NCBI GenBank assembly: GCA_013286935.1
Contig: JABDES010000001.1
Span: 2,499-66,498 of the forward strand
Direction of reading: 5' to 3'
From: Candidatus Babelota bacterium
GTDB lineage: Bacteria; Babelota; Babeliae; Babelales; Vermiphilaceae
Length of the DNA stretch: 64,000 bases
In this document: positions 4,175-45,044 of the stretch, one piece after another
How the letters are laid out: each line of letters opens with the position of its first letter
Position numbering within the stretch: the stretch's first letter is position 1
The notes under the pieces: generated by a model
The model's database searches: none
What the model was told of the DNA's origin: nothing
What the model saw: the letters and a program-made list of their open reading frames with translations, nothing else
Program-made: the position numbers and the translations under genes

Positions 4175-4900
4175 ATGATTAACTATTTTACTGTTTGTTT
4201 TATTATGCATATTTTTTTTCCGTTGAGTTTATATGCGATGGAAGAAGATGATGGGTTACTACATTTGTTGGGTCGCTTGGGAGTGAGTGAGGGCTGTTCT
4301 CAAGCAGAGGTTAAAACGTTTTCAGATACTATTACCAGTTTGGTGAGAGATATTGAAGCAATTGAATTGATGACTAACAAAGTATTGTTGAATGCTAACA
4401 AAGAACGTACGGAGTTTCCTGTTGAGGATAGATTAACTGTTTTGTTAAGCGAAGAATCTCAGGTTATATCAACGATTTATGATGAATATATTCAGGTTCT
4501 TAGGGGACTGAGTAGCTCACATCCTGGTCTTATAAGACAAGAGCATAATGGTATTACGCCCTTAACGTATGCTGCAAATATAGGCTTTTCAGAATTGCTT
4601 GAATGGTTACTTGTCAATGGCGCAGACTCTTATAATAAAGATCAGAAAGGCTTGACTGCTATGGATGTTGCTTATGAGAATTATTTGTGCGTTAAGAAAA
4701 ACAGTCCTGGTTATCTTTCAAGCACACGGTATTTGGGCAATTTTGAACAGTGTGTGATTGTTTTAATAAAGCATATGGATGTTAGTTTTGTTTTACGGCT
4801 TTTTAGTGATGTTACGGATAGGGTCTATATGAAAAGACGGTCTCGATTGTTAAAGATCGTGACGGATATGTCGACTAGCGTCCCTTACATCGACGACTAA
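4175..4900 (+). CDS. Exported ankyrin-repeat protein, paralog of 3365-4093
   Basis: N-terminus MINYFTVCFIMHIFFPLSLYAME. ANK unit ITPLTYAANIGFSELLEWLLVNGADSYNKDQKGLTAMDVA. Confidence 0.75.
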   Translation: MINYFTVCFIMHIFFPLSLYAMEEDDGLLHLLGRLGVSEGCSQAEVKTFSDTITSLVRDIEAIELMTNKVLLNANKERTEFPVEDRLTVLLSEESQVISTIYDEYIQVLRGLSSSHPGLIRQEHNGITPLTYAANIGFSELLEWLLVNGADSYNKDQKGLTAMDVAYENYLCVKKNSPGYLSSTRYLGNFEQCVIVLIKHMDVSFVLRLFSDVTDRVYMKRRSRLLKIVTDMSTSVPYIDD

Positions 4901-14846: not shown

Positions 14847-14850
14847 TAGT

Positions 14851-17407: not shown

Positions 17408-17553
17408 GATAGCTCTAAAACAAAATTATTGAGCTATGGTTGACTTGTGCTATCGAGCGTGTTATTACGAAAGCTATGCTGATGTTCGTTACGTTACCGT
17501 TCGGTAATTATTTGGTGATGTAACAAAATCAGTAAATAAAGGAGAAGCTTTTG

Positions 17554-19431
17554 ATGAGGCGATTCAATTGTACAGTGTTTTTACTATTTGTTATGTTGTT
17601 TTCCGTTTTTCATCACGGCCTAATCTGTATGGATCTGTTGGTTGGGCATCAATGCACAAAGAGCGAAGATGCGGTCGCAGCAGCATCATCAGATGAAGAT
17701 CAATATGCTTTGGTTTATAATTTATTATTGTCCGTTGAAGGCCTGATAGATATTTATGAACGTGCATGCCATAAGGTCCAGGAGACGGTTACCCAAACTC
17801 GTGGTTGCTGTGATCAAGTAGATTTGTTTGGTTGCCATACAGAGATGTTGAGTATTCTTCTTATTTTGCAAAATCGTATAGATTTGGTTTTGGCTGAAAT
17901 TGCAGGTCTTGGTCAGAACATAAATATAGCAGTTGTACAAACGGTACAGCAATTATTTGTCCCCCTCTGTTCAAAGCTACAAGCAATAGAAACGAGCATT
18001 CAGAATCTAGACATAGATTTAACTTCACAAGTCAGTCAATTAGAACAAGAAATAGCTTTGCAAGGTGAAGAGCTACTGTCTGCCTTATCAGGCGTTGAAA
18101 CATTTATTGCTCTTGGCGATGATGCATTGTCTTCTCAGCTATCTTCCGTTCTTACCAGCCTTACACTGCAAAATAACTCTTTGATATTAGCTATATCAGC
18201 GTTGTCTGATCAATTAACTACACAAAATAATTTGCTATGTTCTAAGATAGCGACTTCTGAGAAAAATATTTCTAATCAACTAACTACTGGGTTTGCCACG
18301 CAACAGATATCGACAACATCGCAGTTAGACTCTATTAGTGGACAGATAAGCACTTCTAAATCGCAACTATCAAAACAAATTACCGCGCAAGGAGCATCGC
18401 TTAATACGGCAATTGTTAATGGTATTAATGATCTTTGCGCAAAGATCATTTGCGGCAACGAAGCATTAAGTGCTCAAATCAAAAAAAGTACTGGTCTTAT
18501 TCGTACAGATATAACCCTTCTTTCTGGTGCACTTGGTTCACAAATTTCCACAGTGGATAAAGATCTTGCATTGCAGACAGATAGGGTTTGTGCAAAGATT
18601 GCAAATTCTGCGGCAGCATCGGCTATCCAGTCTGAACGATTATCTGAAAATATTTTTGACGCGAAGGTTGATTTGAGTAATCAAATGACGGTTCAGGTTG
18701 CTGGAGTTGATAATAGTGTAAATGCACAAGGAAATGCTATTTCAGCAAAATTATGTGCATTGCAATCTGGGTTACGTGGTCAGCTTGCAGTTCAAGTTGC
18801 CGAGTTTAGTTCAGATTTTAACGTACAAACTACGCAATTGTGTTCAAAGTTGTCTACAATTTATACTAATTTGACCAATCAAATAGATACTGATTTTTCT
18901 AATTTGAGTTGTGATCTGGTTGAACAGATGGCCGTTTTATGTGCGAAATTAGTTGGAATTGATACGGATATAACAACCCAGTCAAGCAGGATTAATGCTC
19001 GATTGGCGAAGGTAGAATCTGATTTGTCAAGCCAAGTATGTGTCAAAGTTTCCAATATTGAGACAAATCAGGTTATAGGTAAGAATCAGTTGAGCGCTCA
19101 GATATCTAATTGTTGTTCTTTACTTAGCAATCAGCTAACTTCACAGCTTTCCTCTGTTGAAACGGACCTTACGTTACAAAATAATTCTCTTAGTTCACAA
19201 ATAGCTGCGGTGCAAACGGCTCTAGGCAACCAATTAACTGTTCAAATAGGAAGCGTTAACGGAGAAATTGTAAGCTTTGAAGGATCTGTAAACTCACAAT
19301 TATCTGCAATACAAACCGATCTGACGAATTTGATTACCGCCCAAATATCTTCCTTGGGCGCGAGTTTAACTATGCAAATTAATAATGTGCTGACAGCAGT
19401 GGCTGCGGTCTCTTGTCCTTCATGTACGTGA
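17554..19431 (+). CDS. Exported hendecad-repeat Cys-ladder protein, subfamily A, member 1
   Basis: ATG at 17554 after AAAGGAGAAG. Signal-like FNCTVFLLFVMLFSVFHHGLIC. N-terminal CC box RGCCDQVDLFGC. Dozens of consecutive 11-residue units. Cys codons at 18841, 18940 and 19039 are exactly 33 codons apart in LCSK/LCAK/VCVK contexts. Ends ...AVSCPSCT. Confidence 0.85.
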   Translation: MRRFNCTVFLLFVMLFSVFHHGLICMDLLVGHQCTKSEDAVAAASSDEDQYALVYNLLLSVEGLIDIYERACHKVQETVTQTRGCCDQVDLFGCHTEMLSILLILQNRIDLVLAEIAGLGQNINIAVVQTVQQLFVPLCSKLQAIETSIQNLDIDLTSQVSQLEQEIALQGEELLSALSGVETFIALGDDALSSQLSSVLTSLTLQNNSLILAISALSDQLTTQNNLLCSKIATSEKNISNQLTTGFATQQISTTSQLDSISGQISTSKSQLSKQITAQGASLNTAIVNGINDLCAKIICGNEALSAQIKKSTGLIRTDITLLSGALGSQISTVDKDLALQTDRVCAKIANSAAASAIQSERLSENIFDAKVDLSNQMTVQVAGVDNSVNAQGNAISAKLCALQSGLRGQLAVQVAEFSSDFNVQTTQLCSKLSTIYTNLTNQIDTDFSNLSCDLVEQMAVLCAKLVGIDTDITTQSSRINARLAKVESDLSSQVCVKVSNIETNQVIGKNQLSAQISNCCSLLSNQLTSQLSSVETDLTLQNNSLSSQIAAVQTALGNQLTVQIGSVNGEIVSFEGSVNSQLSAIQTDLTNLITAQISSLGASLTMQINNVLTAVAAVSCPSCT

Positions 19432-19493
19432 GAGGTTAGTTTGAGAGTAATAATCTAATAAATTCTTCAAAAAAAGAGTTAGCGGGAGAGAGT

Positions 19494-20555
19494 ATGAATG
19501 GTAAAATAGGCTTGTTATGTTCTAGCGTGATCACGATTTTTTGTACCGTTTTTGTTATGACAGTCGATGAGGTTTGCGCAAAAGCATATGATTGGACAGA
19601 GCAAAATGTTGAACGTATCCAGCAAGTGATAAAGGATCAACAAAAGACAGAGCAGGAAAATAGTAAGGGAGTTGATCAGCGGGGAGGATGTGCTGCTGGC
19701 GTGTGTCCTTCAACGGAAGGTTTATTGTTGCAGGAGATTATAACCTGCCTGAATATTATAAAGGCAAGGATAAATACTGTTATAAATGACATCACACAAG
19801 TTTCTCTACAAGATGTTGTTATTATAAGCAAAATTGAAGCGTTAAGCTCTCAGGTAGCACTATGTTGTTCGGAACTTGAAGCGGCCATTGAAACCTCTCT
19901 TGACTCGATTATTTCTGAATTAATAACGACTCAAGATTCAATAATTTCCGAGCTGATAACGGCTCAAGATTCAATAATTGCTGAAGTAAATACATGTTGT
20001 GCCGTAATCACCTCAGATCTGTCTGCCCTGGAAATCTCTCTGATCAGCGCCTTTGATTCTGGCCTTACTTCAGTAGAAAGTTCACTGGCATCAGACATCA
20101 ATAGCTGTTGCGCATCTATCACCTCAGATCTGTCTGCGCTGGAAACTTCTCTGATTGGTGCTTTTGATTCTGGTCTTGCTTCAGTCGAAAGTTCATTAGC
20201 CTCAGATATTAACAGTTGCTGTGCATCTATTACTTCAGATTTATCTGCGGTAGAAACTTCTCTGATCAGCGCTTTTGACTCTGGTCTTACTTCAGTAGAA
20301 AGTTCACTAGCGGCAGACATTAATAGTTGTTGTTCAACCATTACTTCAGATTTGTCCGCCTTGGAAAGTTCAATTATAAGTACTTTTATTAGTCAACTTG
20401 CTTTAGTAGAGTCTTCAATTATAAGTACCTTTTCTAGTGAGATTGCCTCTTTGGAAAGTGCAATAGATGCAAACTCATTTACATCTTGTTGTTCTGTGTT
20501 GAGTTCTCAAATTAATGCAATTCAAGAGATCTTGCTTGGTCAGCTATGCCCTTAG
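19494..20555 (+). CDS. Exported hendecad-repeat Cys-ladder protein, subfamily A, member 2 (short, internally tandem-repeated)
   Basis: Signal-like LLCSSVITIFCTVFVMTV. Cys box GGCAAGVCPS. Three 11-aa repeats (DSIISELITTQ), then four 37-aa repeats each with an INSCCASITSDL box. Ends LLGQLCP. Confidence 0.85.
   Translation: MNGKIGLLCSSVITIFCTVFVMTVDEVCAKAYDWTEQNVERIQQVIKDQQKTEQENSKGVDQRGGCAAGVCPSTEGLLLQEIITCLNIIKARINTVINDITQVSLQDVVIISKIEALSSQVALCCSELEAAIETSLDSIISELITTQDSIISELITAQDSIIAEVNTCCAVITSDLSALEISLISAFDSGLTSVESSLASDINSCCASITSDLSALETSLIGAFDSGLASVESSLASDINSCCASITSDLSAVETSLISAFDSGLTSVESSLAADINSCCSTITSDLSALESSIISTFISQLALVESSIISTFSSEIASLESAIDANSFTSCCSVLSSQINAIQEILLGQLCP
19902..20426 (+). repeat. 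In-frame tandem repeats inside member A2: 33 bp x ~3 (19902-19982), then 111 bp x 4 (19983-20426)
   Basis: Unit starts read directly: GACTCGATTATTTCT at 19902, GATTCAATAATTTCC at 19935, GATTCAATAATTGCT at 19968. The 111-bp units start at 19983, 20094, 20205 and 20316 (GACATCAATAGCTGTTGC / GATATTAACAGTTGCTGT / GACATTAATAGTTGTTGT). Confidence 0.9.
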
Positions 20556-20635
20556 TAAGATAATTCAAATGAAAAGATGGGCGCCATGATAATGAAGCGA
20601 TGTAGAGTAATTTTTATATATTATAAGGAGAAAAA

Positions 20636-21094
20636 ATGAAAAAAAAGCTGGTACATTATGTAACGCTATCTGTCGCTCTCATAAGCCTTATGTCGATACA
20701 GATGACAATGGCTACAGATACCGAACATAAGGCTGCAACTATTCAAAAGCAGCTGGAAGAGTCACTCGAGTCAGATGTTATAGTTTTGTCTCGAGAACAG
20801 GCAATGAAAATAATGCATGTGTTAGAATGCGTTGTAGAGACCTATCAGAAGGACGGCTCTCTGGATTTGCCAGGACAGGGAGCGCGTGCTGCCTTAAGTT
20901 GTTGTGCTCAGTTAGATGAGGTTGTCCAGTGCTTGTTGCTCATTAAATCCTCACTGGCTACTATTCAGGTAATAGATACTTCCATACTGGGTACAGTGGA
21001 AAGCTGCTGTAGCGTTATTGAAGGCCAAATAGCAACTAATCAATCTACACTTGTTTCACTTTTGCAGACAATTATTAGTTGTACATGTACCTAA
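20636..21094 (+). CDS. Exported mini-member of subfamily A (member 3, 152 aa)
   Basis: Signal peptide MKKKLVHYVTLSVALISLMSIQMTMA. N-terminal CC box LSCCAQLDEVVQCLLLIKSSL and C-terminal CC box VESCCSVIEGQI. Ends IISCTCT. Confidence 0.8.
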   Translation: MKKKLVHYVTLSVALISLMSIQMTMATDTEHKAATIQKQLEESLESDVIVLSREQAMKIMHVLECVVETYQKDGSLDLPGQGARAALSCCAQLDEVVQCLLLIKSSLATIQVIDTSILGTVESCCSVIEGQIATNQSTLVSLLQTIISCTCT

Positions 21095-21179
21095 GATTTC
21101 ATGTAAAGATAGAACACAGCAAAATTTTGAATATAAGTTTTGCTGTGTTCCCGTTGTAGTACCGTTGGTATAACAGAGG

Positions 21180-23180
21180 GTGAGAGTGAAATCAATGTTG
21201 TTTTTTTTCTGTGCTGTGTTATTGGTCTTTGTTAATTGGGCAAGCTACATAATTTGTAATAATGTGATCGAAAATAGTTGTGTATGTCAGGAGCGCAACG
21301 AAACGATTTTACTGATAGAAAGCATACAAAAAAGCATCGATGAGCTGTGCTCTCAACTTGCCTGCCTTGCACATCCCAGTTCCTGTGCGACTTGTGACGA
21401 TTTTACAAATTTTTTTATTGCTTTAGACGATCAAATTAGTGCGCTTGTCAAACTTTTGTTAGCCCAAAGCATTACGATTTGTAGTAAATTTACGACGCTT
21501 GAGCGTAGTTTATCCGAACAGGAAGAAGCGATTTGTAGACAGATCATCTCCATACAAAACCAACTTGGAATGAGCATAGATGATATTCTCACACTATTCA
21601 CCAAAACAGCAAGTCATAATAACATAAAAAGACAACACATTTTAGAAGCAATTGGAAAGCTAGGCGCTACCCTTCAGATTGAATTACAATGTGCGTTTAG
21701 TGCCCTCAGATCTGCTGTGCTTGTGCAAACTAATGGTATAAGCATATTGACTAACGATACAAAAACAGCTGTGGTAAAATCCATAGGTGAAATATCTACT
21801 CAGATAGTAAAGTTTGAACATGAAGTTATTGCTCTTATTAACATACTTTTTTCTTATATAGAGTCGGCTACTGCGAGCAATCTTTGCACGTGGTGTGCTG
21901 TATTAAAAGATGCTGGAACAACAATAACAAAAACTATTTTAGAGCAGAACGATACATTTGAATTGACAATGTCTGTCTTGCACGATGAGCTTGTTTCAAA
22001 ATTAAGTGGATTGGAAACGTTTCTGACGCAAAAAGATTCGCACTTATTGGCTCAGATTAATAAAGTAAAAGAGAGTGCGAAAACTGAGCAGTTACGGTTT
22101 GGCTCTGTGTTTGTTATGGCTAACAGTGAAATTAACAGCAGCATTCTTTCTACGTTTGGTAAAATGGATACAGATGTCGTATGTACGGTTGATAGCATTA
22201 GATTATGCTTAATTAGGTTGTGCACCGCTCTGCATACGGATTTGAATAATAATACATTGGCTTTTGCTACCAAATTAGTGGCCTGGTTGGATCAATTTTG
22301 TCTAAAGCTTTCCTGTCTGCAGTCAGCAATATGTGATGTGCTTGCTGCTCAATTTACGGCAACAGAATTGTTTGCTAGTAATAAATTGGATCGCATAAAA
22401 ATTAGAGTGGAGGAGATGCAAGATGGGGTGCAGGTGCAACAGGCTGAAGCACTTGGGAGCATTGATTGTTTAGGTGCTCTCTTAGAACAGGAAGTATGTA
22501 TAAAAATTTCAGGACTTGAAACATCGCAAGCCAAAGATACTGATCAGTTTTTACAGCAATTTGGTTATTTTCAGGCCAATTTGGTGAGTCAGCTGTGTTC
22601 AAAATTGGCCGCTATGGAGCTTGTATTGCTTGGAAAGGCTTCAGATATTATGAACAAAATTGTAAGGACGCAGGTTCAGTTAGATGAAAAAATTGATGAT
22701 ATTGCCGGACAGATAATCTCTGATACTATTGCTCGTGACGATCTTCTTTGTGCTCAGGTGCAAGCGGCTGCATTTGGATTAGAAAGTCAGTTGGTGGTAG
22801 CAATTTCAAATTTGGGCGTAGAATTAAAGAGCCAAGAACACAATCTGTGCGTTAAGGTTACACAAGAGTCTGCATCTCTCCAGCAGGAGACCAATGATAA
22901 TGTGCAAAACAGCGAAGCCGCTTTATTGTCATACAATCAAATGTTATCCACTCAGATAATGGATATGGGATCTACGGTTGACGAAGCATATGAAAACTTT
23001 CTTTCAAATATGGACGTTGTTCAAAATGAGATTATAGGAGATATAGTTGCCACAGGTGCTATTTTAGATAGTCGCCTACAGGATATTACTGCTGCGCTAG
23101 GAGCGGCTTATCTAGAATATTTGGGTGTGCTGACCACTCTGATACTTAATGTAGCAACAAATGGTAGTGCAATATTTTAA
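21180..23180 (+). CDS. Exported hendecad-repeat Cys-ladder protein, subfamily A, member 4
   Basis: Signal-like MLFFFCAVLLVFVNWASYI (GTG 21180 or ATG 21195 start). Cys box SSCATCDDF. Motifs ICSKFTTLERSL, QLCSKLAAMEL and LLCAQV...NLCVKV (the last pair 33 aa apart). Confidence 0.8.
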   Translation: MRVKSMLFFFCAVLLVFVNWASYIICNNVIENSCVCQERNETILLIESIQKSIDELCSQLACLAHPSSCATCDDFTNFFIALDDQISALVKLLLAQSITICSKFTTLERSLSEQEEAICRQIISIQNQLGMSIDDILTLFTKTASHNNIKRQHILEAIGKLGATLQIELQCAFSALRSAVLVQTNGISILTNDTKTAVVKSIGEISTQIVKFEHEVIALINILFSYIESATASNLCTWCAVLKDAGTTITKTILEQNDTFELTMSVLHDELVSKLSGLETFLTQKDSHLLAQINKVKESAKTEQLRFGSVFVMANSEINSSILSTFGKMDTDVVCTVDSIRLCLIRLCTALHTDLNNNTLAFATKLVAWLDQFCLKLSCLQSAICDVLAAQFTATELFASNKLDRIKIRVEEMQDGVQVQQAEALGSIDCLGALLEQEVCIKISGLETSQAKDTDQFLQQFGYFQANLVSQLCSKLAAMELVLLGKASDIMNKIVRTQVQLDEKIDDIAGQIISDTIARDDLLCAQVQAAAFGLESQLVVAISNLGVELKSQEHNLCVKVTQESASLQQETNDNVQNSEAALLSYNQMLSTQIMDMGSTVDEAYENFLSNMDVVQNEIIGDIVATGAILDSRLQDITAALGAAYLEYLGVLTTLILNVATNGSAIF

Positions 23181-23198
23181 ATTAGTGGAAAGGTGGAG

Positions 23199-25301
23199 AT
23201 GTCTGCTAGATTTTGCTCATTTTATGGTCTTGCCAACTGCTTGAGTATAGTAGCATTATGTATATGTATTTTGCGCGGCCAAGAGTCTGGCAAGATTTCT
23301 TCTTTTGCCAAGAACGATTTAGAACGGTTGTTAAGTGACATAGAGAACTTTGTTAAAGATAATCCGTACCTTTGTCAGTACAGAGGTGCGTTATGCAAGC
23401 AACCGAATGCTTGTTGCATAGACATTCAATTACTTAATGAGATTGATTCTTCTTTGTTTGTTATTAAGGCCAGGTTAATTGAATGCCTTTCTCAGATTAA
23501 TTTTTGTTGTGGCGGCGCTGAACAGATTATTGACGCAGAGATTGATCCTTTCTTTGCTAGAATCAACAATCTTATATGCGTATTGAATGATCTGATTATT
23601 GTGCAGCAGAGTAACACTAATTCTTTTGTAGACCAAATTAATACTGAGTTGGATGCAAATAATAATACGACCAAACAAAAACTTTATAGCCTGAATGCTG
23701 CGGTCTTGGCAAATTATGCGGCTTTGTCTGCGCAGATTACCAATGAAAAACAGTTGATTATAGAACAACAGAGGTTGCAAAAAAATGAGTTAGCCCTCGT
23801 GCAATCGAAATTAGATGTCCAAATAGTTACGGGTTGTCTTGAACTCAAAGAACAACTGTTCACTGCTATTGGCCAGATCAGTCAACAATCGATTGCATTA
23901 AACAATACTATTGTACGGGCAGATGAACAGTTAAATAGTGCATTATATGGCGCTCGGCATGCAATTACGAATGCCTTTATTAGTGGCAGTGCTCAACTGG
24001 CTGATTTGATCGAACAGCAATCTTGCGCATTTGATACCAAGATAAAAAAATTATTTGCAAAGCTTAGTGGTCAGTTGACTGGGCAAGTTTCACGTAGCGC
24101 CGTCAATAGCTCTATTCAAACAGATATGATCTGCCAAGGTATTTCAAATATAGGACGCTCACAACAGCGTCAGTCTAATGTTCTTATTCAAAAACTAGTT
24201 GATATTATAGCGCTTCTTGGAAAATTAACCGATGTTACGGTAGAACGAATTCTTGTTGCCACATCTGCTTTGACTACTCAAGTCAATGAGCAAAGTTCCC
24301 TTTTGGCCTCCACAATGTCTAATTCCATTCCCACTCTTATTACTCAATTAGTAAGTTGTCGGTCAAGTCTATACAATGCATTATGCGAGCAAGTATTGGG
24401 GCTAGAGATTCAAATGGTTGAAAGTAGTGACAAAGCCTGTGCCAAACTACAAAATTTTGAAACGGATTTTTGCCAGTTTTTTGAAATGCAAATTTCAAAG
24501 CTAAATAACAATGCTATTGTATCGATGGCAGATATCACTGGTCAACTCGCTGTTTTGGATGAATCTTTGCGCACGTATAAAACATATGTTTCCAGTCGTT
24601 TTTCTTGCGTCCAGCAGGGTGTGCAGTCGCAAATATGCCAAAAGCTTTCCAATCTTTCTACCGAAGAGCTTTTTAATAAAAATTGCATTCTTGGACAGTT
24701 AGTTAATGCAGATTTACAGATTACAGGACAGCTTTCAAATAAAATATCTACAATTTCTAAAAATTTGACCGCAGAAAATGCAGCTATCCAGGTTGGCATA
24801 AGCAATGCATTGCTGGATGTGTATAACCATTTGGGGCAAAATTTTTCTACACTCAATGGAGTGCTTGTTGCCAATAGCAATGCATTATGCGCAAAGCTGG
24901 CGGCAGCACAAACGGTTCTTGCCGGAGATCTTAATAACTCATTGGCGCAGTTATATACTGATTTGACAAATCGAAATAATATAATATCTCAAAGAATTAC
25001 GACGCTTGGTTTGGATTCTGGATTAGCAGTCAATGGTGGTCTATCTACCCTCTCTACGAGCATATTCGTCCAGAATCAAAGCCTATGTAACCAATTAGTT
25101 AATTTTTTAACAGAAGTTACGGCGGATAACAATGCTGTTATGACCAAATTATCAGGAATAGAATTGGCAATTACAACAACGTTGATCAATACAACCCAGG
25201 AGGTTGATAATGCTATTACTATGATTTATGCAGAGGTTCAGAACCTGCTATTAACGTTTGCGTATACCTATTCAGCCATACTGATTTATTTGTTGGTGTG
25301 A
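23199..25301 (+). CDS. Exported hendecad-repeat Cys-ladder protein, subfamily A, member 5
   Basis: ATG 23199 after AAAGGTGGAG. Signal-like FYGLANCLSIVALCICIL. CC box PNACCIDIQLLNEI. Clean hendecad run QLVNADLQITG/QLSNKISTISK/NLTAENAAIQV/... ALCAK to SLCNQ spacing is 66 aa. Hydrophobic C-terminus TFAYTYSAILIYLLV. Confidence 0.85.
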   Translation: MSARFCSFYGLANCLSIVALCICILRGQESGKISSFAKNDLERLLSDIENFVKDNPYLCQYRGALCKQPNACCIDIQLLNEIDSSLFVIKARLIECLSQINFCCGGAEQIIDAEIDPFFARINNLICVLNDLIIVQQSNTNSFVDQINTELDANNNTTKQKLYSLNAAVLANYAALSAQITNEKQLIIEQQRLQKNELALVQSKLDVQIVTGCLELKEQLFTAIGQISQQSIALNNTIVRADEQLNSALYGARHAITNAFISGSAQLADLIEQQSCAFDTKIKKLFAKLSGQLTGQVSRSAVNSSIQTDMICQGISNIGRSQQRQSNVLIQKLVDIIALLGKLTDVTVERILVATSALTTQVNEQSSLLASTMSNSIPTLITQLVSCRSSLYNALCEQVLGLEIQMVESSDKACAKLQNFETDFCQFFEMQISKLNNNAIVSMADITGQLAVLDESLRTYKTYVSSRFSCVQQGVQSQICQKLSNLSTEELFNKNCILGQLVNADLQITGQLSNKISTISKNLTAENAAIQVGISNALLDVYNHLGQNFSTLNGVLVANSNALCAKLAAAQTVLAGDLNNSLAQLYTDLTNRNNIISQRITTLGLDSGLAVNGGLSTLSTSIFVQNQSLCNQLVNFLTEVTADNNAVMTKLSGIELAITTTLINTTQEVDNAITMIYAEVQNLLLTFAYTYSAILIYLLV

Positions 25302-25323
25302 TGATTGACGAAAGAAGTGGACA

Positions 25324-27342: not shown

Positions 27343-27372
27343 TGTGGCTATGATGAAAGGGGTTGTAAAAAA

Positions 27373-29625: not shown

Positions 29626-29640
29626 TGATATGGTGCTCTT

Positions 29641-31578
29641 ATGAACATTGCTTTTATGCGCTATATACGTTTGTGTAAGATGCGTTTTGTATGCGTCTTC
29701 TTGGTTACTTGTATGCAGGCCAATGCATCCGAATATGTAGATCAATCTGAACAGATGGCATATGAGATTATTTCCCTGCTGGTTTCTATGGAAAATAATC
29801 TTGAGTATTTGTGTCAACGTATGCGTTCCTCTATCGTTTCAAAAACCGATAGGCAGGCAAATTTTGCTGTGCCAGACAACATTATCAGCTCAAATGTGTG
29901 CGATAGACTTTTTGACTTGATTGATACAATGGAAGGTTTTATTAATGACGATCAATATCAATCTACTTTGTCGTTGCATAAGGATGCTGAAAGCATTCTC
30001 AAGGTAAAAACCTATTTTGAAAATCTTTTTTTACATATGCAATCCAATTATAAAACCTATCAGATGGCTATTAATTCGAATGTAGAGCGATTTAAGGCAG
30101 CAGTTGATCATGATAGATTTTTGATGCAAGAGGCGCAGGAAAAAGTTGCCTTGTACCTAAATTCTGCGTGTTCGAGTTTACTTGATAGGGTGCGTTGTAA
30201 TGTTGTAGAAAAAATAGGTGAACTTAGTGGTGGTTTACATATAGAGGAATGTGAACTAAAAATACGTGATGAATATCAAAAAAATATCTGTATTGGCGAT
30301 AGTATGTTCGGTCTCTTTAGAGATGAAATTGATCAGATATTGAATATGTTCGAAGAAAAATTCCACAACATGATGCTTCCTGATGATACATCAATCTTTG
30401 ATGCCTTAGACAAAAAAGGTGCTACGTTGCTAGAAGAGTTGCTGTCGGACTTTGAAATAAAAAATGCGCAGTTAAGAGTCATTTTCTGCGCGCAACGTTC
30501 TACATTTTATTCTACGTTTAATGATATGTGTGAATCGATGGCCGCAATCATTAATGGTGTAGTGCAAAATCGGATTTGCTTTGATACATATTCTGTGAAC
30601 AAATCAACCAGCTGTGAAAGATGTAAAGAGCAGTGTGATGTGTTAACAGAGCAATGTGCTTGTCTTAAGCAATCAATTTTTTCTGCGCTAGAGAACTGTG
30701 TTGTGAGACAGTGCAGTTTTTATGAAGAACAAATTGTTTTTGTGCAGCAAGAAATGAAATCTGCGCTCCAAAAAAATGCCGTAGCAAAAAATACATTGTG
30801 TAATAATTTAAAAAGGCATACAGATCTTGTGTGCCAATTTTGTTCGTCAATCTGCGGTAACGTTGCTCAGTATTTTTCAACCGCCGCCGCAGAGAGCATT
30901 TACAGCAAAAACGAACTTGTGCGAAACATTGCCTTATTTCAGACTGATATAGTGGATCAAATGAAAATCGTCTCTGAAAGATTTAATTTCGATATGCATG
31001 AGTATTTGGCTGACTGTCACGACATAATTTGTGTTATTGATACCATTGTGGACAATGCGTTATCAAAGATGAGCGGTGCATTTGATAGAGCACTGTTTTC
31101 TGCTGAAAGCGATTGCTCTTTAGTCAGTGCGCTTGCAATCGACATTATGGATGAGATTACTGTGCAACAGTCTCAAACACAATGTGTAGTGGCTGCCAGA
31201 ATAAAATCTTTCACTGATCTGTTGCATGAACAGGTTACCAACGTGGCAAATGTGCAGGCTTTGGCGGCGCAACAATGTTGTAATTTATCAATGATATTTA
31301 GCGACCTATGCCAAAAGATACTCAATGTAGAATGTGCATTGGCTCAGGAAGTTGCAGTGGTCGGTAATCAGTATAATGCCCTGACTGCTACTACTGTAAA
31401 TGAAATTAAGCTGATGGAAGACAACATAAATAGCTCGATTGTCCAAGCGCTTGCAGCCTTGGGCGGTATCCTAGGTGGTCTTATTGGTCAAGCAAAGACA
31501 TTGTTGATCTCAGAAGGAGCGAATGCAGACCTGCTAGCCAAGTCTGGCAAAGGAGGCAAAAAAAGCGGTGGAGGATAA
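29641..31578 (+). CDS. Exported Cys-rich helical protein, subfamily B, member 1
   Basis: Signal-like MRFVCVFLVTCMQANA. More charged and very Cys-rich. Shared C-terminal module LCQKILNVECALAQE...SSIVQALAALGGILGGLIG, then a basic Gly-rich tail KSGKGGKKSGGG. Confidence 0.8.
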   Translation: MNIAFMRYIRLCKMRFVCVFLVTCMQANASEYVDQSEQMAYEIISLLVSMENNLEYLCQRMRSSIVSKTDRQANFAVPDNIISSNVCDRLFDLIDTMEGFINDDQYQSTLSLHKDAESILKVKTYFENLFLHMQSNYKTYQMAINSNVERFKAAVDHDRFLMQEAQEKVALYLNSACSSLLDRVRCNVVEKIGELSGGLHIEECELKIRDEYQKNICIGDSMFGLFRDEIDQILNMFEEKFHNMMLPDDTSIFDALDKKGATLLEELLSDFEIKNAQLRVIFCAQRSTFYSTFNDMCESMAAIINGVVQNRICFDTYSVNKSTSCERCKEQCDVLTEQCACLKQSIFSALENCVVRQCSFYEEQIVFVQQEMKSALQKNAVAKNTLCNNLKRHTDLVCQFCSSICGNVAQYFSTAAAESIYSKNELVRNIALFQTDIVDQMKIVSERFNFDMHEYLADCHDIICVIDTIVDNALSKMSGAFDRALFSAESDCSLVSALAIDIMDEITVQQSQTQCVVAARIKSFTDLLHEQVTNVANVQALAAQQCCNLSMIFSDLCQKILNVECALAQEVAVVGNQYNALTATTVNEIKLMEDNINSSIVQALAALGGILGGLIGQAKTLLISEGANADLLAKSGKGGKKSGGG

Positions 31579-31583
31579 TTTAG

Positions 31584-33503
31584 ATGTTTAGCCTGCTATC
31601 CAATACAATGCGTAAGTTGTTAGTTGCGTGTTGCATTATTGCGACAATCCAGGATGTTTTTGGTGGTGATGAGCAGATAGCCAATGAGATTTTTGCCAAT
31701 TCTGTTCAAATTGCTCAGTTAGCTACATTATTAAAACATAGCATTGAAAATATTGAGTCCTCTGATGTAATCAACACTGAGAATCATGTTACACAACGGC
31801 TTGCAACGTTGACGTTGCAAGCCCTCGACCAGATTGTCTTGTCTGAAAGTAAAAAGGTTCAGAAATATATTGTTTTGTATGATAAGTGTGCCAAAGGGCA
31901 GGAGCTAATGGCTCGAGAATGCAGTGATGTATACAATGCTATCTTTAACCAAGTATGCAACATAAAAAAAAGGTGTAATGAATGCATTACCCAGCAAAAT
32001 TCTATGATCTTACAATTAGAAGAATGGACAGAACATTGCTCTAAAGAGTTGGTTTCTTTTAATGCAAAGCGCTATGAGTCGTATGTTTCCGATTGCAATG
32101 TCCACTTAGGACAATTGTCTGAAGAGTTGCAGGCTATTTTGACCTCCAAAGTATCTGCTGGTCAAGATAACGGTTATGTGTCGGATGATTTTATTGGTGA
32201 TTTACGTAATGTATCCACCATGTATGACGATGTGCGGTGTTCTGTTCGCGCTATATCGCAAGACGCTATAGGTAAAATTCGCCAATGGGATAAACAGGCA
32301 GAAGATGCCTTTTTGCAGTTTTCTCAGAATAACAAGAATGCTTTAAAAGATAGATTATCAATGGATATTAATACTCATTTGAGCAAACTTTATAACGATT
32401 ATTATGAAGAATTATGCGCCAAAGAGGCTATATTTTATCAGCATAGCTCTGAAAAAATTATTACATTATTAAGTGAACTTGATATATGGATGAGTAATGA
32501 TAATTTTGATTTTATAAAAGATATTTCTTTATATTCTTATGATGATTCGATACGAATGATACCCGATACAAATGTGCTTGTAGCTGAACGCCATCGTATG
32601 CAGGATCTTATCGCTAATTTTACTAAAGAATCCTATTTTTCTAACAAAGAATTATGTGCATTCAATAGTGATGAATTTACATCACCTTATCTTGTTCGTA
32701 TAAAAAAAGCCTATGATGAGATATGTCCAATTGTAGGTCAGATAAAAGAATGCTGTAATCAATCTACTGCGCTTTTATATTTATCTATTGAGAATATGAA
32801 TTCCATTATTGAGCTAGCTTGTTCTCAGGCAAAAAATGTTCAATCGAAAGCAATCGCTGATATTGCTACAACAGCGCAAGCTGATATAAAACGGGCGTTG
32901 TCGTGTGCGTCATATGAATTGGGATCTGAATATTGTCATGTCACAGAAAAACTTAATTGTTCAGCGGCTTGTTTGTTGTCCGAGCTACAAAATGCATTTT
33001 TACGCTCAAATTTACAAAATGATACATACAATAGCCAGAACGTAGAACAGATTAAGCGAGCAAAAGATGCATTTGTTGATAGCGCTTCAATAATTGTGGG
33101 TCGTGATTTGCCATGTGTATCATCAACAATTCTTTCATTTTGTAATCAAATTACCTCTGACAATCAAGAATCAGCGGTTATTTTTAGTCAAATGCTCGAG
33201 ACTCAGGAATCTCTCTTGTGCAAAGCTCAAGCAGTATTGTGCGAAAAAATCTTTGATATTCAAAATAATATTATTAATGATATAAATATGCTGAACAATA
33301 GATTAAACTCATCAACTGAGCGTATTATTAATCAGATAAAACGTTCAGAATTTGCTATCAATCAAGATATTGCCGCAATGATGAATTCTATACGAGGTAT
33401 TATCGGGGCATTTGGTAATTATTATTTTTATATTAATAGACAAACAGAGCGCAATATAGAGTTAGCTATAATACTTTTGGTCATAAAGATTTTAACGCTA
33501 TAA
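31584..33503 (+). CDS. Exported Cys-rich helical protein, subfamily B, member 2
   Basis: Starts 5 nt after the B1 stop. Signal-like LLVACCIIATIQDVFG. C-terminal module VLCEKIFDIQNNIINDI...IAAMMNSIRGIIGAFG and hydrophobic end IELAIILLVIKILTL. Confidence 0.8.
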   Translation: MFSLLSNTMRKLLVACCIIATIQDVFGGDEQIANEIFANSVQIAQLATLLKHSIENIESSDVINTENHVTQRLATLTLQALDQIVLSESKKVQKYIVLYDKCAKGQELMARECSDVYNAIFNQVCNIKKRCNECITQQNSMILQLEEWTEHCSKELVSFNAKRYESYVSDCNVHLGQLSEELQAILTSKVSAGQDNGYVSDDFIGDLRNVSTMYDDVRCSVRAISQDAIGKIRQWDKQAEDAFLQFSQNNKNALKDRLSMDINTHLSKLYNDYYEELCAKEAIFYQHSSEKIITLLSELDIWMSNDNFDFIKDISLYSYDDSIRMIPDTNVLVAERHRMQDLIANFTKESYFSNKELCAFNSDEFTSPYLVRIKKAYDEICPIVGQIKECCNQSTALLYLSIENMNSIIELACSQAKNVQSKAIADIATTAQADIKRALSCASYELGSEYCHVTEKLNCSAACLLSELQNAFLRSNLQNDTYNSQNVEQIKRAKDAFVDSASIIVGRDLPCVSSTILSFCNQITSDNQESAVIFSQMLETQESLLCKAQAVLCEKIFDIQNNIINDINMLNNRLNSSTERIINQIKRSEFAINQDIAAMMNSIRGIIGAFGNYYFYINRQTERNIELAIILLVIKILTL

Positions 33504-33517
33504 GCAAAAGGCGGATT

Positions 33518-35467
33518 GTGTGTAATGTTACTTTTATATTGAGACTAGTTTTATATTTTGTGATTATACCTGCTGTCAATTGTTTAGAAATTGGCAATGT
33601 GTATGGAGCAGATCTTAAGATGCAAAAAGATTCATCTATCGATAGTGGTAAAAAATCTGGTAGACATCTTTCCTCCCTAGTTCTTGCAGAGATTGCGTAT
33701 CATATCGCTAAGGTTGATGCCCAGCTGCGTGATGCATTATTTTTATGTGACTCTTTGACTAATAAAGATGCAAAAAAGCCGGAAGATATATTTGACTATC
33801 AACGCACAGCAGAACATTTAGTCGCTGCCAATCAGCTTATTGAGCGATTAAATAGTATGAGCCAGTTATGCAAAGAAGAGGATGCTCATATAGATTCAAT
33901 GCAAGAGGCATCTGTTACTATTCGCTCGCTGGTTGACGATATGCAGCTTCAAATAGGCAAAGTAGATAGTAGCATTACAAAAGATCAATCTTTAATCTGT
34001 GCTGAGCATGCGCAGATTATGAAATCATTACCGTGCAAGTACTTTGTGCATCTTAATGATGACAAGTCTGAAAAGGATCAATGTTCAATGTTTACTTTGC
34101 TTAAAAATGGTCTAATGCATTCTATCGACTTGTGTAGAGCTGATGATACTTTCAACCCCTCATGCAATGTATTGAAAGAGGCCCACTGTATAGTGCCGGC
34201 ACAAAAGGAGTTTGGTAATGCATTGAGCACGGTTGCTTTAAAAGATCAATTAGATGTTTTATTAAAAACGAAAAGTGTTAATATTCTTGCCCGTGAATGT
34301 CAGCACCGGGTTCTTGACAAAATTAATGTTGTCAAACAAAAGACAATGCCGATCTCTGAAGATATTGCTGTTGTTGTAGCTCGCGCACAGGAAGAGCTGA
34401 ATAATTTTAAAATGAACATAGATGTAGCATATAACAATTTAGACAAGCGATTTCACAAATCTTTTCAAAAAATAGAACAGATTCGTTCAAGCCTTTGTAC
34501 AGCATGTTCTAAGTGTGTCAATACGGTCAAAGAGCTGATGGAAAAAGAGATAGACACCTTATCTTGCAACGCTTGCCATCAGGCTGGAATCTGTAGGGAG
34601 CAGATCAATACCGGTTGTTTGCAGCTGGAAAATGAGCTTCACGTAATCATGAATGATATGTGCTTTAATGTTTTAAGTCACAAAAAAGCGGTAGTTTCTT
34701 GTGTTAATCAATTTGACAAAAATATGAATGTTGCTGTTCAAAACGTTATAGGCAGTATGACAGAAGGTGGTTCGAGTGTTGTTAAGACAATAAGCATTGA
34801 CAAGAATGAGATTTTACGATTTCTTAGTGAGCTGTCTGTGCAATTTTATACAATGTTTTCTGGTGGATTGAATTTGGCTAAGGCTGATTTTTCCTGCAAT
34901 GTCGGATCGTTAAGCAATCTTTCTGAAAAGGTTTGCTTGAATGGAGCTGCAAATATAGGAAATGCCTTGTCAGACTTTGAAAAGCTTAGCGCGTGCAATG
35001 AAGCCTGTATCAATAATGAAATTGATAAAATACAATTTTCACTAACAGATTTTTTCAAAAATACGTTTAGTCTGCTGTCTTGCCAGATTATATCTCATTT
35101 TAACGACAGTGTTAGTCAGATAAGACAGCAGCTTGCAGATGAAAACACAGCTATCCAACAGTCTGTTGTAGCGTGCTGCATACCAAGTTTAACTGATGCA
35201 CTTTGTATAAAACTGTTGGGTGTACAAAAAGAGATGGCGGTTGCTATAAACCAATTAGAGATTCAGATTGCCAACAATGAGCAGCTTATTATTAACGAAA
35301 TTATTGCAACGCAAGATGACATTGCCACTTCGCTTGCAAATATGATGGCCGCTATTACGGGTATATTTGGAGCTTTTGCTGCATTAACGTTTTCTATCGT
35401 TTCAGCCATTTTTGTTAATGAACAGTCATTTATAGAATTGATTATTACCCTAGGACTAGGGATTTGA
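33518..35467 (+). CDS. Exported Cys-rich helical protein, subfamily B, member 3
   Basis: GTG start. Signal-like FILRLVLYFVIIPAVNC. C-terminal module LCIKLLGVQKEMAVAINQLE...LANMMAAITGIFGAFAALTFSIVSAIF. Confidence 0.8.
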   Translation: MCNVTFILRLVLYFVIIPAVNCLEIGNVYGADLKMQKDSSIDSGKKSGRHLSSLVLAEIAYHIAKVDAQLRDALFLCDSLTNKDAKKPEDIFDYQRTAEHLVAANQLIERLNSMSQLCKEEDAHIDSMQEASVTIRSLVDDMQLQIGKVDSSITKDQSLICAEHAQIMKSLPCKYFVHLNDDKSEKDQCSMFTLLKNGLMHSIDLCRADDTFNPSCNVLKEAHCIVPAQKEFGNALSTVALKDQLDVLLKTKSVNILARECQHRVLDKINVVKQKTMPISEDIAVVVARAQEELNNFKMNIDVAYNNLDKRFHKSFQKIEQIRSSLCTACSKCVNTVKELMEKEIDTLSCNACHQAGICREQINTGCLQLENELHVIMNDMCFNVLSHKKAVVSCVNQFDKNMNVAVQNVIGSMTEGGSSVVKTISIDKNEILRFLSELSVQFYTMFSGGLNLAKADFSCNVGSLSNLSEKVCLNGAANIGNALSDFEKLSACNEACINNEIDKIQFSLTDFFKNTFSLLSCQIISHFNDSVSQIRQQLADENTAIQQSVVACCIPSLTDALCIKLLGVQKEMAVAINQLEIQIANNEQLIINEIIATQDDIATSLANMMAAITGIFGAFAALTFSIVSAIFVNEQSFIELIITLGLGI

Positions 35468-35494
35468 CATAGTTGTGCGTTTTATTGCCAAGGG

Positions 35495-37426
35495 ATGGAA
35501 ATGACAGCTGCTCTTAGACCAATATTAGGTGTTACCAGTTCATTGTTGTTATTGCACATCATCTATGCATCAGATGTTTATGATTTTCGTCTTATAGAAC
35601 CGCTGGCGCATCTTCTGGGGGCCAACCAAGACGTCAGCCAAACAACCGATGTTATTGATATTCTTGTTGACCCTGTTGTGTTCTATGAAACGAATACAGA
35701 CTCTCTATTGATTGAGTCTGAAGTGGATTACCTTGTCAGAAAGGTAGGTATCGACAGTGTATTATTGTCAAAGCGGCTTGATATGGCTATCGATCTTCAC
35801 AATACGGTTATTGCTTGTCAAGAAAAAATGCACAATGATGCTTGCGCTGCGCAGCATTCAATTACGAGCTTGTGCCAATCGTGCGTAGAACAACTCGATG
35901 TGCGAATGCCTAGTCATTTAGAGGTGCTTGATACGAACGGTGGTGTGTACGATATTAACGATGCCATATTAGGTATAGAATCTGGACTAGCCGCCTTGGA
36001 GTGTATGCTCGATAAAGCAGTTACTATATTTGTCCAACATAGCGTACAAGATACCAAAAAGCGTCTTGATCAAGCTGACAACGTTATTACTAGATTGCAA
36101 GAACAGCTGTGTGATCAGAGCCAAGATTTTGCACAAGAATGCAGTTCGCTCAAGGATGAGATAAACCATCAAGCAGAGCTTGCTGCTCAACATATTCAAA
36201 CCAATAAAAGTAATGCATATAAACAGATAGACGATGCTCTAAGGGCAGTTGAGGATGATAGAGGTGCAGCGATAACAGATGAGACTGCCTTAAAACATGC
36301 CCGTGCAATAGCTACTGTTAATAGTCACAATCAATCGGCGATTGTTGTACTCGAACAGGCGATTCACGAATCTGAAAAGGTGGTACAAAAAAAGGCGAAC
36401 GCATTATTACAACATTGTTCTGATGCTCAGAAAAAAATGCTGCAGTTTGACACTTTTTATAATGCTGAGCGTGATGCTCATGCTTTATTTCACGAGCAAG
36501 TCGAATCTTGTATGAGTGAATTTATTTGTCAGATACCGCTATTCTGTCAGGGGTGGAGTAAGTCATGTGATACATCACAGGAGCATCTTCAAGCGGAAAG
36601 TGAGCACATAATAAAAAGATGGTGTGATACATTGTCAAAAATCCCGTGGAAACAATGTGACTGCCGTATGGTGGCAGAGTGGGTAGAAAAATCGGCTGCA
36701 ATATTTGATAATTTTTTGTCTGGCATGGCATCAAATTTAAAGATTCATACGGTAGAATCAAAAAATGAGCTTAATCGGCAGCTAGGTCCGATGTTAGTCC
36801 TCTTGTCCGAGGTTATTCGTACTGGTTATGCACAGTTAGGCATTGATTTGACTGAACGTCAGGAGCAGCTTGGTGCTAATACTCAGCAACTTGCAGATTC
36901 GATAGCCAATGATACTGCTGCTTGGGCAGATTCATTTTCGGAAAATGTTGTATCGAATCACAATGCATTTGTTATGGCCTTAGAAGACTCTATGTCTGAT
37001 ATAAAACAAACGATTCAGGATACCTTTTTGTCGTTGCAATCTTTAGTGAGCTGTACATTAAAAGCATGTTCGCAGGAATTATCAGGCACGCAATCGGCGC
37101 AAGATGCCTCGGCGCAGATGGCAATTCAAAAGCAATTATGTCAGATCAGCGTGTTTGGTAACGTGTTGTGCGAGAAAATTTTCAATTTGCAAAACAATAT
37201 ACTATTTGCCTTCAACGAAAATCTAAAGTTGGCCTATCGAAATGAAGCGGCAATAGTAAATCAACTTATAGCATCCACCGACCAAATAAATCTTCTTATA
37301 GCTGCGATGGTTAGTGCGGTACAGAGCGATTTAGGTGGGGTGTCTGGCTTTATTGAGCAGGCAATAAAAAATTCAGAAAAAACAACAACAATTCTCGATG
37401 TTATTGTTATTTTAAGTATGTTGTAA
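35495..37426 (+). CDS. Exported Cys-rich helical protein, subfamily B, member 4
   Basis: Signal-like ILGVTSSLLLLHIIYA. C-terminal module VLCEKIFNLQNNILFAF...LIAAMVSAVQSDLGGVSGFI and hydrophobic end ILDVIVILSML. Confidence 0.8.
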   Translation: MEMTAALRPILGVTSSLLLLHIIYASDVYDFRLIEPLAHLLGANQDVSQTTDVIDILVDPVVFYETNTDSLLIESEVDYLVRKVGIDSVLLSKRLDMAIDLHNTVIACQEKMHNDACAAQHSITSLCQSCVEQLDVRMPSHLEVLDTNGGVYDINDAILGIESGLAALECMLDKAVTIFVQHSVQDTKKRLDQADNVITRLQEQLCDQSQDFAQECSSLKDEINHQAELAAQHIQTNKSNAYKQIDDALRAVEDDRGAAITDETALKHARAIATVNSHNQSAIVVLEQAIHESEKVVQKKANALLQHCSDAQKKMLQFDTFYNAERDAHALFHEQVESCMSEFICQIPLFCQGWSKSCDTSQEHLQAESEHIIKRWCDTLSKIPWKQCDCRMVAEWVEKSAAIFDNFLSGMASNLKIHTVESKNELNRQLGPMLVLLSEVIRTGYAQLGIDLTERQEQLGANTQQLADSIANDTAAWADSFSENVVSNHNAFVMALEDSMSDIKQTIQDTFLSLQSLVSCTLKACSQELSGTQSAQDASAQMAIQKQLCQISVFGNVLCEKIFNLQNNILFAFNENLKLAYRNEAAIVNQLIASTDQINLLIAAMVSAVQSDLGGVSGFIEQAIKNSEKTTTILDVIVILSML

Positions 37427-41927: not shown

Positions 41928-41987
41928 ATACTCTCTTTTTTAATTAAAGTTGCCAAGCACGTAAAATAAGTTAGAACTCCTCATTAT

Positions 41988-45020: not shown

Positions 45021-45044
45021 AGTTACTGCTCCTAATATTGTAAT

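Follow-up and report, generated by a model that had tools for sequence, protein, structure and literature searches.

The 64-kb stretch of DNA analysed here (hereafter the window) stems from a Candidatus Babelota bacterium and carries, on its plus strand, an array of eleven consecutive open reading frames (ORFs) of 152–750 amino acids (aa), running from position 17551/17554 to 37426. The array spans ~20 kb, nearly a third of the window, and appears to encode exported, cysteine-rich proteins, most of them predicted coiled-coil rods. We call them m1 to m11 in the order of their genes (626, 353, 152, 666, 702, 672, 750, 645, 639, 649, and 643 aa). The intergenic gaps from m1 to m11 measure 62, 80, 85, 12, 22, 30, 15, 5, 14, and 27 bp, and this tight spacing suggests co-transcription. 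Coordinates and gaps were recomputed and agree with a preliminary description of this DNA, which had listed eleven plus-strand ORFs with gaps of ~5–85 bp; the peptide blocks quoted there were located in the translations of m5 and m1. A Shine–Dalgarno-like motif precedes most of the start codons. The promoter and terminator scan of the window stayed at chance level, and the Rfam scan yielded one tRNA only.

Members of the array and their host

An all-versus-all BLAST comparison sorts the members into a group A (m1, m2, m4, m5, m6, and m7; E 1e-4 to 1e-20) and a group B (m8–m11), whose members are linked to each other only via their last ~130 residues (e.g., m9 versus m11, E 7e-8 over the last 133 aa). 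The short m3 is unlinked to the other members and joins m2 only via a longer orthologue on the metagenomic contig L001; it is apparently a shortened paralogue of m2. Between groups A and B the profile–profile comparison (hhalign) gives a weak link (probability 43%, E 2.5e-4), and the alignment of group A with m2/m3 is not significant by the same method. Run against the small set of window ORFs, the group A profile finds m2 (E 9e-8) and, weakly, m10 (E 1.8e-6). Both groups do have a motif in common, namely hydrophobic-Cys-x-Lys/Gln-hydrophobic (hCx[KQ]h; e.g., LCSKL and LCEKI). A single paralogous family of eleven, as first proposed, is thus not demonstrable, given that BLAST and hhalign return A, B, and m3 as weakly linked units. 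On these comparisons the array is better described as three weakly linked subgroups: long rods, CC-repeat proteins, and a fast-evolving, Cys-rich group B.

The first gene, m1 (17551–19431), encodes a predicted group A hendecad rod, i.e., one built on an 11-residue period, which ends in ...AAVSCPSCT without a hydrophobic tail. An AAGGAG lies 8 nt upstream of the ATG at 17554, and since this Shine–Dalgarno-like motif favours that ATG, it is probably the start of m1. Orthologues of m1 occur as a cut gene in L001, as the second array gene in assembly L084 (33% identical), and in L090 (27%). The next two genes form the CC-repeat subfamily. The product of m2 (19494–20555; end ...GQLCP) carries 37-aa tandem repeats with one Cys-Cys pair per repeat, and its gene holds the sole DNA-level repeat among the array members (111 bp × 3.3 at 20007–20371); it is 27% identical to the first array gene of L084 (E 4e-18). 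The short CC-repeat member m3 (20636–21094; end ...ISCTCT) is 49% identical to its 300-aa orthologue in L001, which has m2-like TCCA repeats. A 125-aa antisense ORF on the minus strand (19964–20341) within m2 lies over the 111-bp tandem repeat; most probably it is a side effect of that repeat, not a gene.

Four group A rods follow: m4 (21180–23180), m5 (23193–25301), m6 (25324–27342), and m7 (27373–29625). Among these, m5 and m7 carry C-terminal hydrophobic tails (...YSAILIYLLV and ...AIITVFSFLPPLI, respectively), and the hendecad register of m6 is unbroken over residues 281–598. In public gene calls m4 begins only at residue 29 and so loses its signal-like segment, and m7 begins at residue 6; for m1 and m6 no entry was found in protein collections. 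The longer form of m4 is supported, because its orthologues retain the N-terminal hydrophobic segment. Group B completes the array with m8 (29641–31578), which has 4.8% Cys, a weaker period, and a Gly-rich hydrophobic segment near its C-terminus, m9 (31584–33503), m10 (33518–35467; C-terminal ...ITGIFGAFAALTFSIVSAIFV), and, as last array gene, m11 (35495–37426).

All eleven proteins have a hydrophobic segment within their first ~30 residues in a hydropathy scan, in line with the signal-like N-terminus claimed for each of them earlier, and we infer that they are exported. Their composition is as peculiar as had been noted (rich in Q/S/T/N/L/I/A and in Cys), also when set against 30 other window genes: Cys makes up 3.65% of the array residues versus 1.59% (Fisher p 1.6e-17), and Pro 0.58% versus roughly 2–5% in most of these 30 genes. 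S+T+N+Q account for 29.5% of the array residues, and every member is acidic (net charge −6 to −41). The C-termini fall into several types. A hydrophobic tail of ~20 residues, often of the small-xxx-small type (e.g., ...IALAAIAAGVAALAV), is found in m5, m7, m10, and most relatives from other genomes, and m1–m3 end not in such a tail but in Cys motifs (CPSCT, LCP, and CTCT). Group B has Gly-rich hydrophobic segments, e.g., ITGIFGAFAALTF, including GIFGAFAA- and GGILGGLIG-type ones. The hydropathy scan gives single N-terminal and/or C-terminal segments only, without a bilobed Inc-type domain (~40–60 residues).

None of the members could be assigned to a known family. The Pfam, NCBIfam, and PHROG scans gave no model at its cut-off, and with the PDB searches they bear out that the proteins had rightly been called unrecognised. 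The best Pfam match is Apolipoprotein (PF01442) with 34.8 bits in m1 and 9.9 bits in m6 (cut-off 90; no match in other members), followed by Baculo_PEP_C (PF04513, the C-terminus of the baculovirus polyhedron envelope protein) with 27.9 bits in m2, 22.1 in m1, and 13.2 in m10 (cut-off 38). A profile of five members found only apoA-IV in the PDB (9hx4 and 3s84; 31 bits, E 8.6e-7). We reject homology to apolipoproteins or to the baculovirus protein: these matches reflect periodicity, because many Cys-free hendecad proteins (including phage-tail-type ones) match the same profile and the same Pfam labels. Chlamydial Cys-rich outer membrane protein families gave nothing at E ≤ 1 in a Pfam search with 10 members. 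The Pfam and NCBIfam scans of the members likewise gave no SLH, OmpA-like, LysM, or other wall-binding domain. Pfam further returned no eukaryote-like domain and no trimeric autotransporter domain (YadA-like C-terminal beta-barrel, head, or neck), and the C-termini are short helical hydrophobic tails instead. Literature searches found nothing on an array family of this kind.

The Dependentiae, the clade to which the host belongs, are widespread, with very few cultured representatives and almost nothing known of their cell surface. The GyrB of the window is 67% identical to that of a Candidatus Dependentiae metagenome-assembled genome (MAG), 65% to Candidatus Babeliales, and 60% to Candidatus Babeliaceae MAGs, with further matches in a MAG labelled "uncultured bacterium" (65%) and, partial, in one labelled Pseudomonadota (71%); full-length matches in other phyla stay at ≤51%. 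The suspicion of a host-associated bacterium is thereby supported, as GyrB places the host in the Dependentiae/Babeliales. The literature portrays the Dependentiae as protist-infecting intracellular parasites whose envelope is of the Gram-negative type. The Babeliales are without most lipopolysaccharide (LPS) genes, and their outer membrane has been described as degenerate (PMC4776705); Chromulinavorax is also without LPS genes and has a complete mur pathway (PMC6561590).

Hendecad period and cysteine register

The periodicity was measured as the autocorrelation of L/I/V/M/F, compared with 500 shuffles. In m1, m2, and m4–m7 the z-score reaches 4–9 at lags 11, 22, 33, and 44 (9.3 for m1 at lag 11), is also raised at lags 7, 18, 29, and 40, and is ~0 or negative at the heptad lags 14, 21, 28, and 35; six control proteins from the window give no 11-residue signal. 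Peaks at 11 and 33, not 7, had been expected in the preliminary description, and these six members have the 11-residue harmonics without the heptad ones. Its extension of the period to all members is too broad: the signal is strong in the six, weaker in m8, m10, and m11 (z 3–5), marginal in m9 (2.6), and not measurable in m3 (152 aa).

A Viterbi register model places 3–9 register breaks per ~600 residues, and L/I/V/M/F occupy position a in 86%, h in 77%, e in 45%, and d in 27% of cases. Judged from the sequences, this narrow hydrophobic seam (~2.3 of 11 positions) is the kind expected of a coiled coil, whereas a lipid-binding face would be broad, and m1, m2, and m4–m7 fall into the hendecad (11/3) coiled-coil class. 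The lipid-surface option (apolipoprotein- or perilipin-like) that had also been raised fits poorly with such a narrow stripe and with the lack of Pro punctuation. An artefact of DNA repeats or low complexity was considered and rejected: a DNA repeat is confined to m2, and at identities of 21–43% the ORFs keep both their lengths and the positions of their cysteines. Outside m2, the period thus appears to be maintained at the protein level.

AlphaFold2 monomer models were used for secondary structure only, i.e., for the statement "almost all helix". For m5 (six-sequence alignment; predicted local distance difference test, pLDDT, 45), DSSP assigns helices to residues 75–297, 303–484, and 496–701; m10 (4 sequences; pLDDT 34) is mostly helix with more breaks. 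A Foldseek search of the PDB with the AlphaFold2 model gave no match. The period, the register model, and these low-confidence models together support the earlier picture of long, almost all-helical, non-heptad rods.

The cysteines of group A follow the same period. For this analysis the register was set by a fixed template in which Cys scored zero. In the group A members of the window, 16 of 88 cysteines fall at position b and 25 of 88 at i (p 5e-10), and in 19 relatives the counts are 75 and 108 of 321 (p 7e-71). Positions b and i directly follow the two main core positions, a and h. On an 11/3 helical wheel they would share one flank of the seam, with a Gln/Lys-rich flank at d/k opposite. 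The hCx[KQ]h motifs of group A are spaced by 33, 66, 51, 84, or 18 residues (33/66/51/84 in m1), and over 31 family proteins 100 of the 138 successive spacings equal 0 or 7 modulo 11, the commonest being 33 (33 times), 51 (18 times), 18 (15 times), and 66 (12 times). Extra Cys clusters (CC and CxC) mark the head of the rod at its N-terminal end.

Cys is also the most conserved common residue type in the orthologue trios of m4–m7, where 40 of 79 cysteines (51%) are invariant, compared with 21.8% of all residues and 37% of Leu; in m4 alone, 15 of the 22 mature cysteines are invariant in the trio. Even among five ancient paralogues that are 14–22% identical, 11 alignment columns have Cys in at least three of the five (by shuffling: mean 0.17 and maximum 2 in 2000 shuffles).

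Related arrays and neighbouring genes

The spread of the family was assessed, as the preliminary description had advised, with a profile hidden Markov model: the group A profile was run with HMMER, in full, against 1.84 billion cluster representatives. This gave 91 matches (25 at E ≤ 1e-10 and 16 at E ≤ 1e-30), ~30 of which are true relatives: they contain 1.1–5.6% Cys and <1% Pro, have the same period, start with a signal-like segment, and end in a hydrophobic one. The other matches lack Cys; they are hendecad proteins, many of them of the phage-tail type, found for their periodicity alone. The clusters of the relatives have one or two members each, all annotated "hypothetical protein". Several further searches added little. 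An m5 orthologue alignment found no relative among the GTDB species representatives, an m7 alignment found only the L001 contig again in the JGI metagenomes, and a scan of viral contigs gave no family member with the patterns used. In a word-indexed homologue search, the matches listed held none for m1 and only m5 itself and P0004 for m5; with a 27-sequence profile, the matches listed added only Cys-free hendecad proteins.

Most of the long rods have orthologues of their own. Those of m4 are P0005 (41% identical), P0007 (34%), and P0012 and P0016 (21–23%), those of m5 are P0004 (43%), P0008 (35%), and P0013 and P0015 (22–23%), and those of m6 are P0006 (43%), P0009 (34%), and P0014 (23%). For m7 these are a 750-aa gene on L001 (39%) and P0010 (29–32%), and the L001 orthologue of m8 is only 23% identical. 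For every one of the paralogue types m4–m7, separate orthologues exist in three to five genomes. The paralogues are therefore older than the split between these genomes, all of them have been retained, and m4–m7 appear to be non-redundant. Length is conserved at ~650–750 aa while orthologue identity falls to 21–43%. The CC genes differ from the long rods in this respect, as their repeat number varies between genomes: m2 has 353 aa versus 583 aa for its counterpart (L001 1368–3119), and m3 152 aa versus 300 aa (L001 3162–4064). Such plasticity of repeat number is common in exposed surface proteins.

At least eight distinct related arrays were found in metagenomes and MAGs, all on one strand and tightly packed, which bears out the view of the array as one conserved unit. 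The contigs L001 and L002 (JGI 3300020965 and 3300020902) carry the m1–m8 types in the same order as the window, and L089 (SRR13608730) has the m5, m6, and m7 types followed by four Cys-rich genes of 616–671 aa in the position of m8–m11. A second layout is found in L084–L086 (GCA_048222815.1 and two sister assemblies), L087 (GCA_964575265.1), and L090 (SRR21707676). Herein, L084 and L090 start with an m2-like gene, an m1-like gene comes second, and at least five group-A-like rods follow; L087 breaks off at its upstream end within the m1-like gene. In this second layout (L084–L087 and L090), members of group B could not be detected. Additional contigs carry further sets of family genes that lie together.

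Two further proteins carry 18-residue repeats. P0037 (1112 aa; GCA_004196275.1, contig SDBV01069683.1, L088 281–3619) has a signal-like N-terminus and a hydrophobic C-terminus, between which stretches of 18-residue ICSK[IL] repeats (the h-C-x-K-h motif) are interspersed with two right-handed beta-helix domains (PF13229, 74.8 bits); its match to the family is weak (E about 1e-7). P0043 (353 aa) consists of eleven near-identical 18-aa VICSKLIDLDEDLSRHDT repeats. An extracellular fibrous role of the motif is favoured, because the Cys-punctuated coil would be the stalk in the fibre- or adhesin-type architecture of P0037. The assembly of P0037 is very fragmented (tens of thousands of contigs) and perhaps holds a eukaryote together with a symbiont.

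Three small genes separate the array from four tandem paralogous genes on the minus strand (39828–46865; 699, 463, 546, and 606 aa), which are followed by HflX. Each of the four products has a signal-like N-terminus and, by Pfam, tetratricopeptide (TPR) repeats, and the first of these genes also carries DUF6165. In the 463- and 546-aa proteins the C-terminal domain has sub-threshold similarity to GT9 (21.7 and 18.5 bits, cut-off 22), and the L087 orthologue of one such gene carries a weak GT9 mark as well. The C-terminal domain had no sequence match in the PDB; because of this and of the sub-threshold GT9 scores, we do not claim the TPR proteins as glycosyltransferases.

The same TPR/GT9-like genes follow the array wherever the downstream flank is visible. 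One-to-one orthologues (36–59% identical) directly follow it in L084 (14179–20832) and L087 (15016–21713), and in L089 the first TPR gene does so (13977–16037) shortly before the contig ends. The association of rods and TPR genes could be functional, for example in the assembly or modification of the Ser/Thr-rich rods. It could equally be plain synteny, because HflX is conserved there too and follows the arrays in L084 (62% identical) and L087. Upstream the flanks differ, with SodA in the window and UvrD in L084 and L090. At the distance of L084 and L087 the array proteins are 21–33% identical and thus evolve much faster than their neighbours. These conserved neighbours, like the three subgroups, the hydrophobic C-terminal tails, and the register-specific, strongly conserved cysteines, had not been noted in the preliminary description.

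Elsewhere in the window, three tandem paralogues lie on the minus strand at 48144–51983 (424, 426, and 432 aa), each of which has a signal-like hydrophobic segment at its N-terminus, then another hydrophobic segment, and towards the C-terminus a region of the conserved pattern ...HWY/F...LDSL(G/S)T(K/E/G)H...; a Pfam scan of the 424-aa copy gave no match. Small proteins with hydrophobic N-termini and, by eye, ankyrin-like motifs are encoded at 1334–2176 (minus strand), 3365–4093, and 4175–4900 (both plus strand). Ankyrin-like repeat proteins are typical of host interaction in intracellular bacteria. Also by eye, a 446-aa ORF (56235–57575, plus strand) was labelled TrmD; it is much longer than expected for TrmD, which suggests a fusion with a second domain. 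Finally, a 209-aa ORF (53288–53917, plus strand) is perhaps a truncated copy of a larger gene, again by eye.

A putative disulfide-stapled envelope layer

We propose, with a probability of roughly 0.45 and thus tentatively, that the array encodes membrane-anchored structural rods which form a disulfide-stapled fibre, palisade, or coat layer on the cell envelope. Each protein would be exported via a Sec-type signal peptide and would fold as a long, nearly straight, multi-stranded coiled-coil rod of the non-heptad (11/3) alpha-helical kind, whose ~560–640 rod residues could, at full extension, span up to ~90 nm. In most members the short C-terminal hydrophobic helix would serve as a membrane anchor; m1–m3 have Cys motifs in its place. 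The rod cysteines are placed mainly every 33 residues (~5 nm) and invariably to one side of the hydrophobic seam; through their disulfides, the rods would be stapled to each other into a cross-linked product. Such a layer may give an extracellular stage its mechanical stability or its host contact and would perhaps be loosened by reduction inside the host. It would make functional sense here, because a lineage without LPS must survive outside its host. In favour of the proposal are the N-terminal hydrophobic segments, the hendecad period with its narrow core, the register and conservation of the cysteines, the hydrophobic tails, the length kept while sequence diverges, the non-redundant paralogues, and the make-up of P0037.

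Several known systems resemble parts of this picture. The stalk of tetrabrachion, from the S-layer of Staphylothermus marinus, has long 11-residue repeats with a core at a/(d,e)/h and an extracellular fibrous role. The rods are alike in their long hendecad runs, for which little or no left-handed supercoil is expected. They differ in having no detected sequence similarity to tetrabrachion, a narrower core (a and h strong, e partial), an array of 7–11 paralogues, register-specific Cys, a C-terminal tail, and an intracellular parasite as their source. Scy and FilP are built on 51-residue repeats (hendecad plus heptad) and are cytoplasmic, without signal peptides and without periodic Cys. Like them, the rods mix 11- and 7-residue units, and spacings of 51 and 18 recur among the rod cysteines; no similarity between Scy/FilP and the rods was detected.

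For the cross-linking, the chlamydial OmcA and OmcB serve as a working analogy only, without homology. They are exported, Cys-rich envelope proteins of obligate intracellular bacteria, where disulfide cross-linking stiffens the extracellular stage, and OmcB is not a coiled coil. By the same analogy a rod layer, if true, would match the chlamydial outer membrane complex by convergence and with an alpha-helical fold, the disulfide cross-linking of the rods being presumed from the placement of their cysteines. Hard (trichocyte) keratins offer a second working analogy, unrelated in sequence: they are eukaryotic, intracellular heptad rods toughened by disulfides, with Cys mostly in head and tail domains and in matrix proteins.

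Critically speaking, a number of points weigh against the proposed layer. With a signal peptide and a C-terminal helix, the default topology would be periplasmic and inner-membrane-anchored, where a 90-nm rod would not fit upright, and the N-terminal segments could also be signal anchors. Group B and m2/m3 have no register preference of Cys. In a parallel, in-register homo-oligomer the b/i cysteines would face the K/Q flank of the neighbour, and disulfides within a bundle would therefore need antiparallel or staggered packing; alternatively, they would run between bundles, this geometry being read from the helical wheel only. The low AlphaFold2 confidence (pLDDT 45 and 34) and the null Foldseek result count on the same side, and no thiol oxidase (DsbA/DsbB-like) is visible in the 64-kb window.

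Extending the proposal to the whole clade is a doubtful step. In this wider form, 7–11 length-matched, non-redundant rods, stapled by disulfides at set register positions every ~5 nm, would make up a hitherto unseen exoskeleton of several components, or a fibre layer for host contact, in one clade of the Babeliales, and the four TPR/GT9-like proteins, exported and dedicated to this task, would assemble or modify it. Being held by disulfides, the layer could be switched by redox state as the cell passes between its extracellular and intracellular stages.

The strongest rival, unlikely in our view, is that the rods span the periplasm as tethers or spacers in the manner of Omp-alpha or Braun lipoprotein, with the C-terminal helix in the outer membrane and the other end at the wall or the inner membrane. 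They would then set the envelope spacing in a lineage whose degenerate outer membrane (PMC4776705) suits such a role, and the cysteines would stabilize oligomers. Omp-alpha (OmpA1) of Thermotoga maritima is an envelope spacer with a signal sequence, a coiled-coil rod, and a hydrophobic C-terminus (PMC3387000), a layout that recurs in m5, m7, m10, and most relatives and not in m1–m3. Length that is kept while sequence diverges is, moreover, a pattern described for coiled-coil spacers (PMC5082667). On the other hand, no wall-binding domain was detected (Pfam and NCBIfam), the SLH domain of Omp-alpha included, and the rods have about twice the residues of the 316-aa, ~50-nm rod of Omp-alpha (PMC3387000). 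Omp-alpha is also a single gene rather than an array, and a simple tether would hardly account for 7–11 non-redundant paralogues. The beta-helix domains of P0037, typical of surface fibres, point away from a spacer as well. Periodic Cys has, to our knowledge, not been reported for Omp-alpha.

An improbable option is that the proteins are directed at the host, i.e., secreted or tail-anchored in the vacuole or another host membrane, either as Inc- or SNARE-like effectors or as fusion or disruption rods that use the Gly/Ala-rich segments of group B. The obligate intracellular parasitism of Dependentiae fits with this, as do the fast sequence evolution and the coiled-coil-rich make-up with terminal hydrophobic segments (GIFGAFAA- and GGILGGLIG-type in group B). 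It is less easily reconciled with register-specific and best-conserved cysteines, for which a reducing host cytosol offers no ready explanation. Neither a bilobed Inc-type nor a eukaryote-like domain was found, no secretion-system genes adjoin the array, and the uniform length and the 7–11 conserved paralogues suggest structure over an effector set.

By far the least credible is a coat of 11-mer amphipathic helices (apolipoprotein-, perilipin-, or LEA-like) on lipid particles or a membrane, e.g., for host-lipid scavenging, for although the rods have the 11/22-residue helical period of exchangeable apolipoproteins and the matches to PF01442 (34.8 bits) and apoA-IV (31 bits) named above, these Pfam scores are far below the cut-off and reflect periodicity, the hydrophobic face is narrow, Pro (0.58%) gives no punctuation, charge is low, and conserved, register-specific Cys and terminal anchors are alien to apolipoproteins.

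Exported coiled-coil fibres and spacers are already known (tetrabrachion, Omp-alpha, and adhesin stalks). What appears to be new is the combination of an array of 7–11 genes, near-unbroken hendecads, register-specific conserved Cys, restriction to one clade of Dependentiae, and the lack of a sequence link to a named family, which we did not find described in our literature searches. The array provides a natural set of very long, nearly unbroken hendecad coils with register-fixed, conserved Cys; among the right-handed or straight coiled coils known so far, such a design has not been described. For the Dependentiae, it is a candidate answer to the question of what gives an LPS-poor, infectious extracellular cell its integrity and host contact, and it offers concrete targets for antibodies, cryo-electron tomography, and redox biochemistry.

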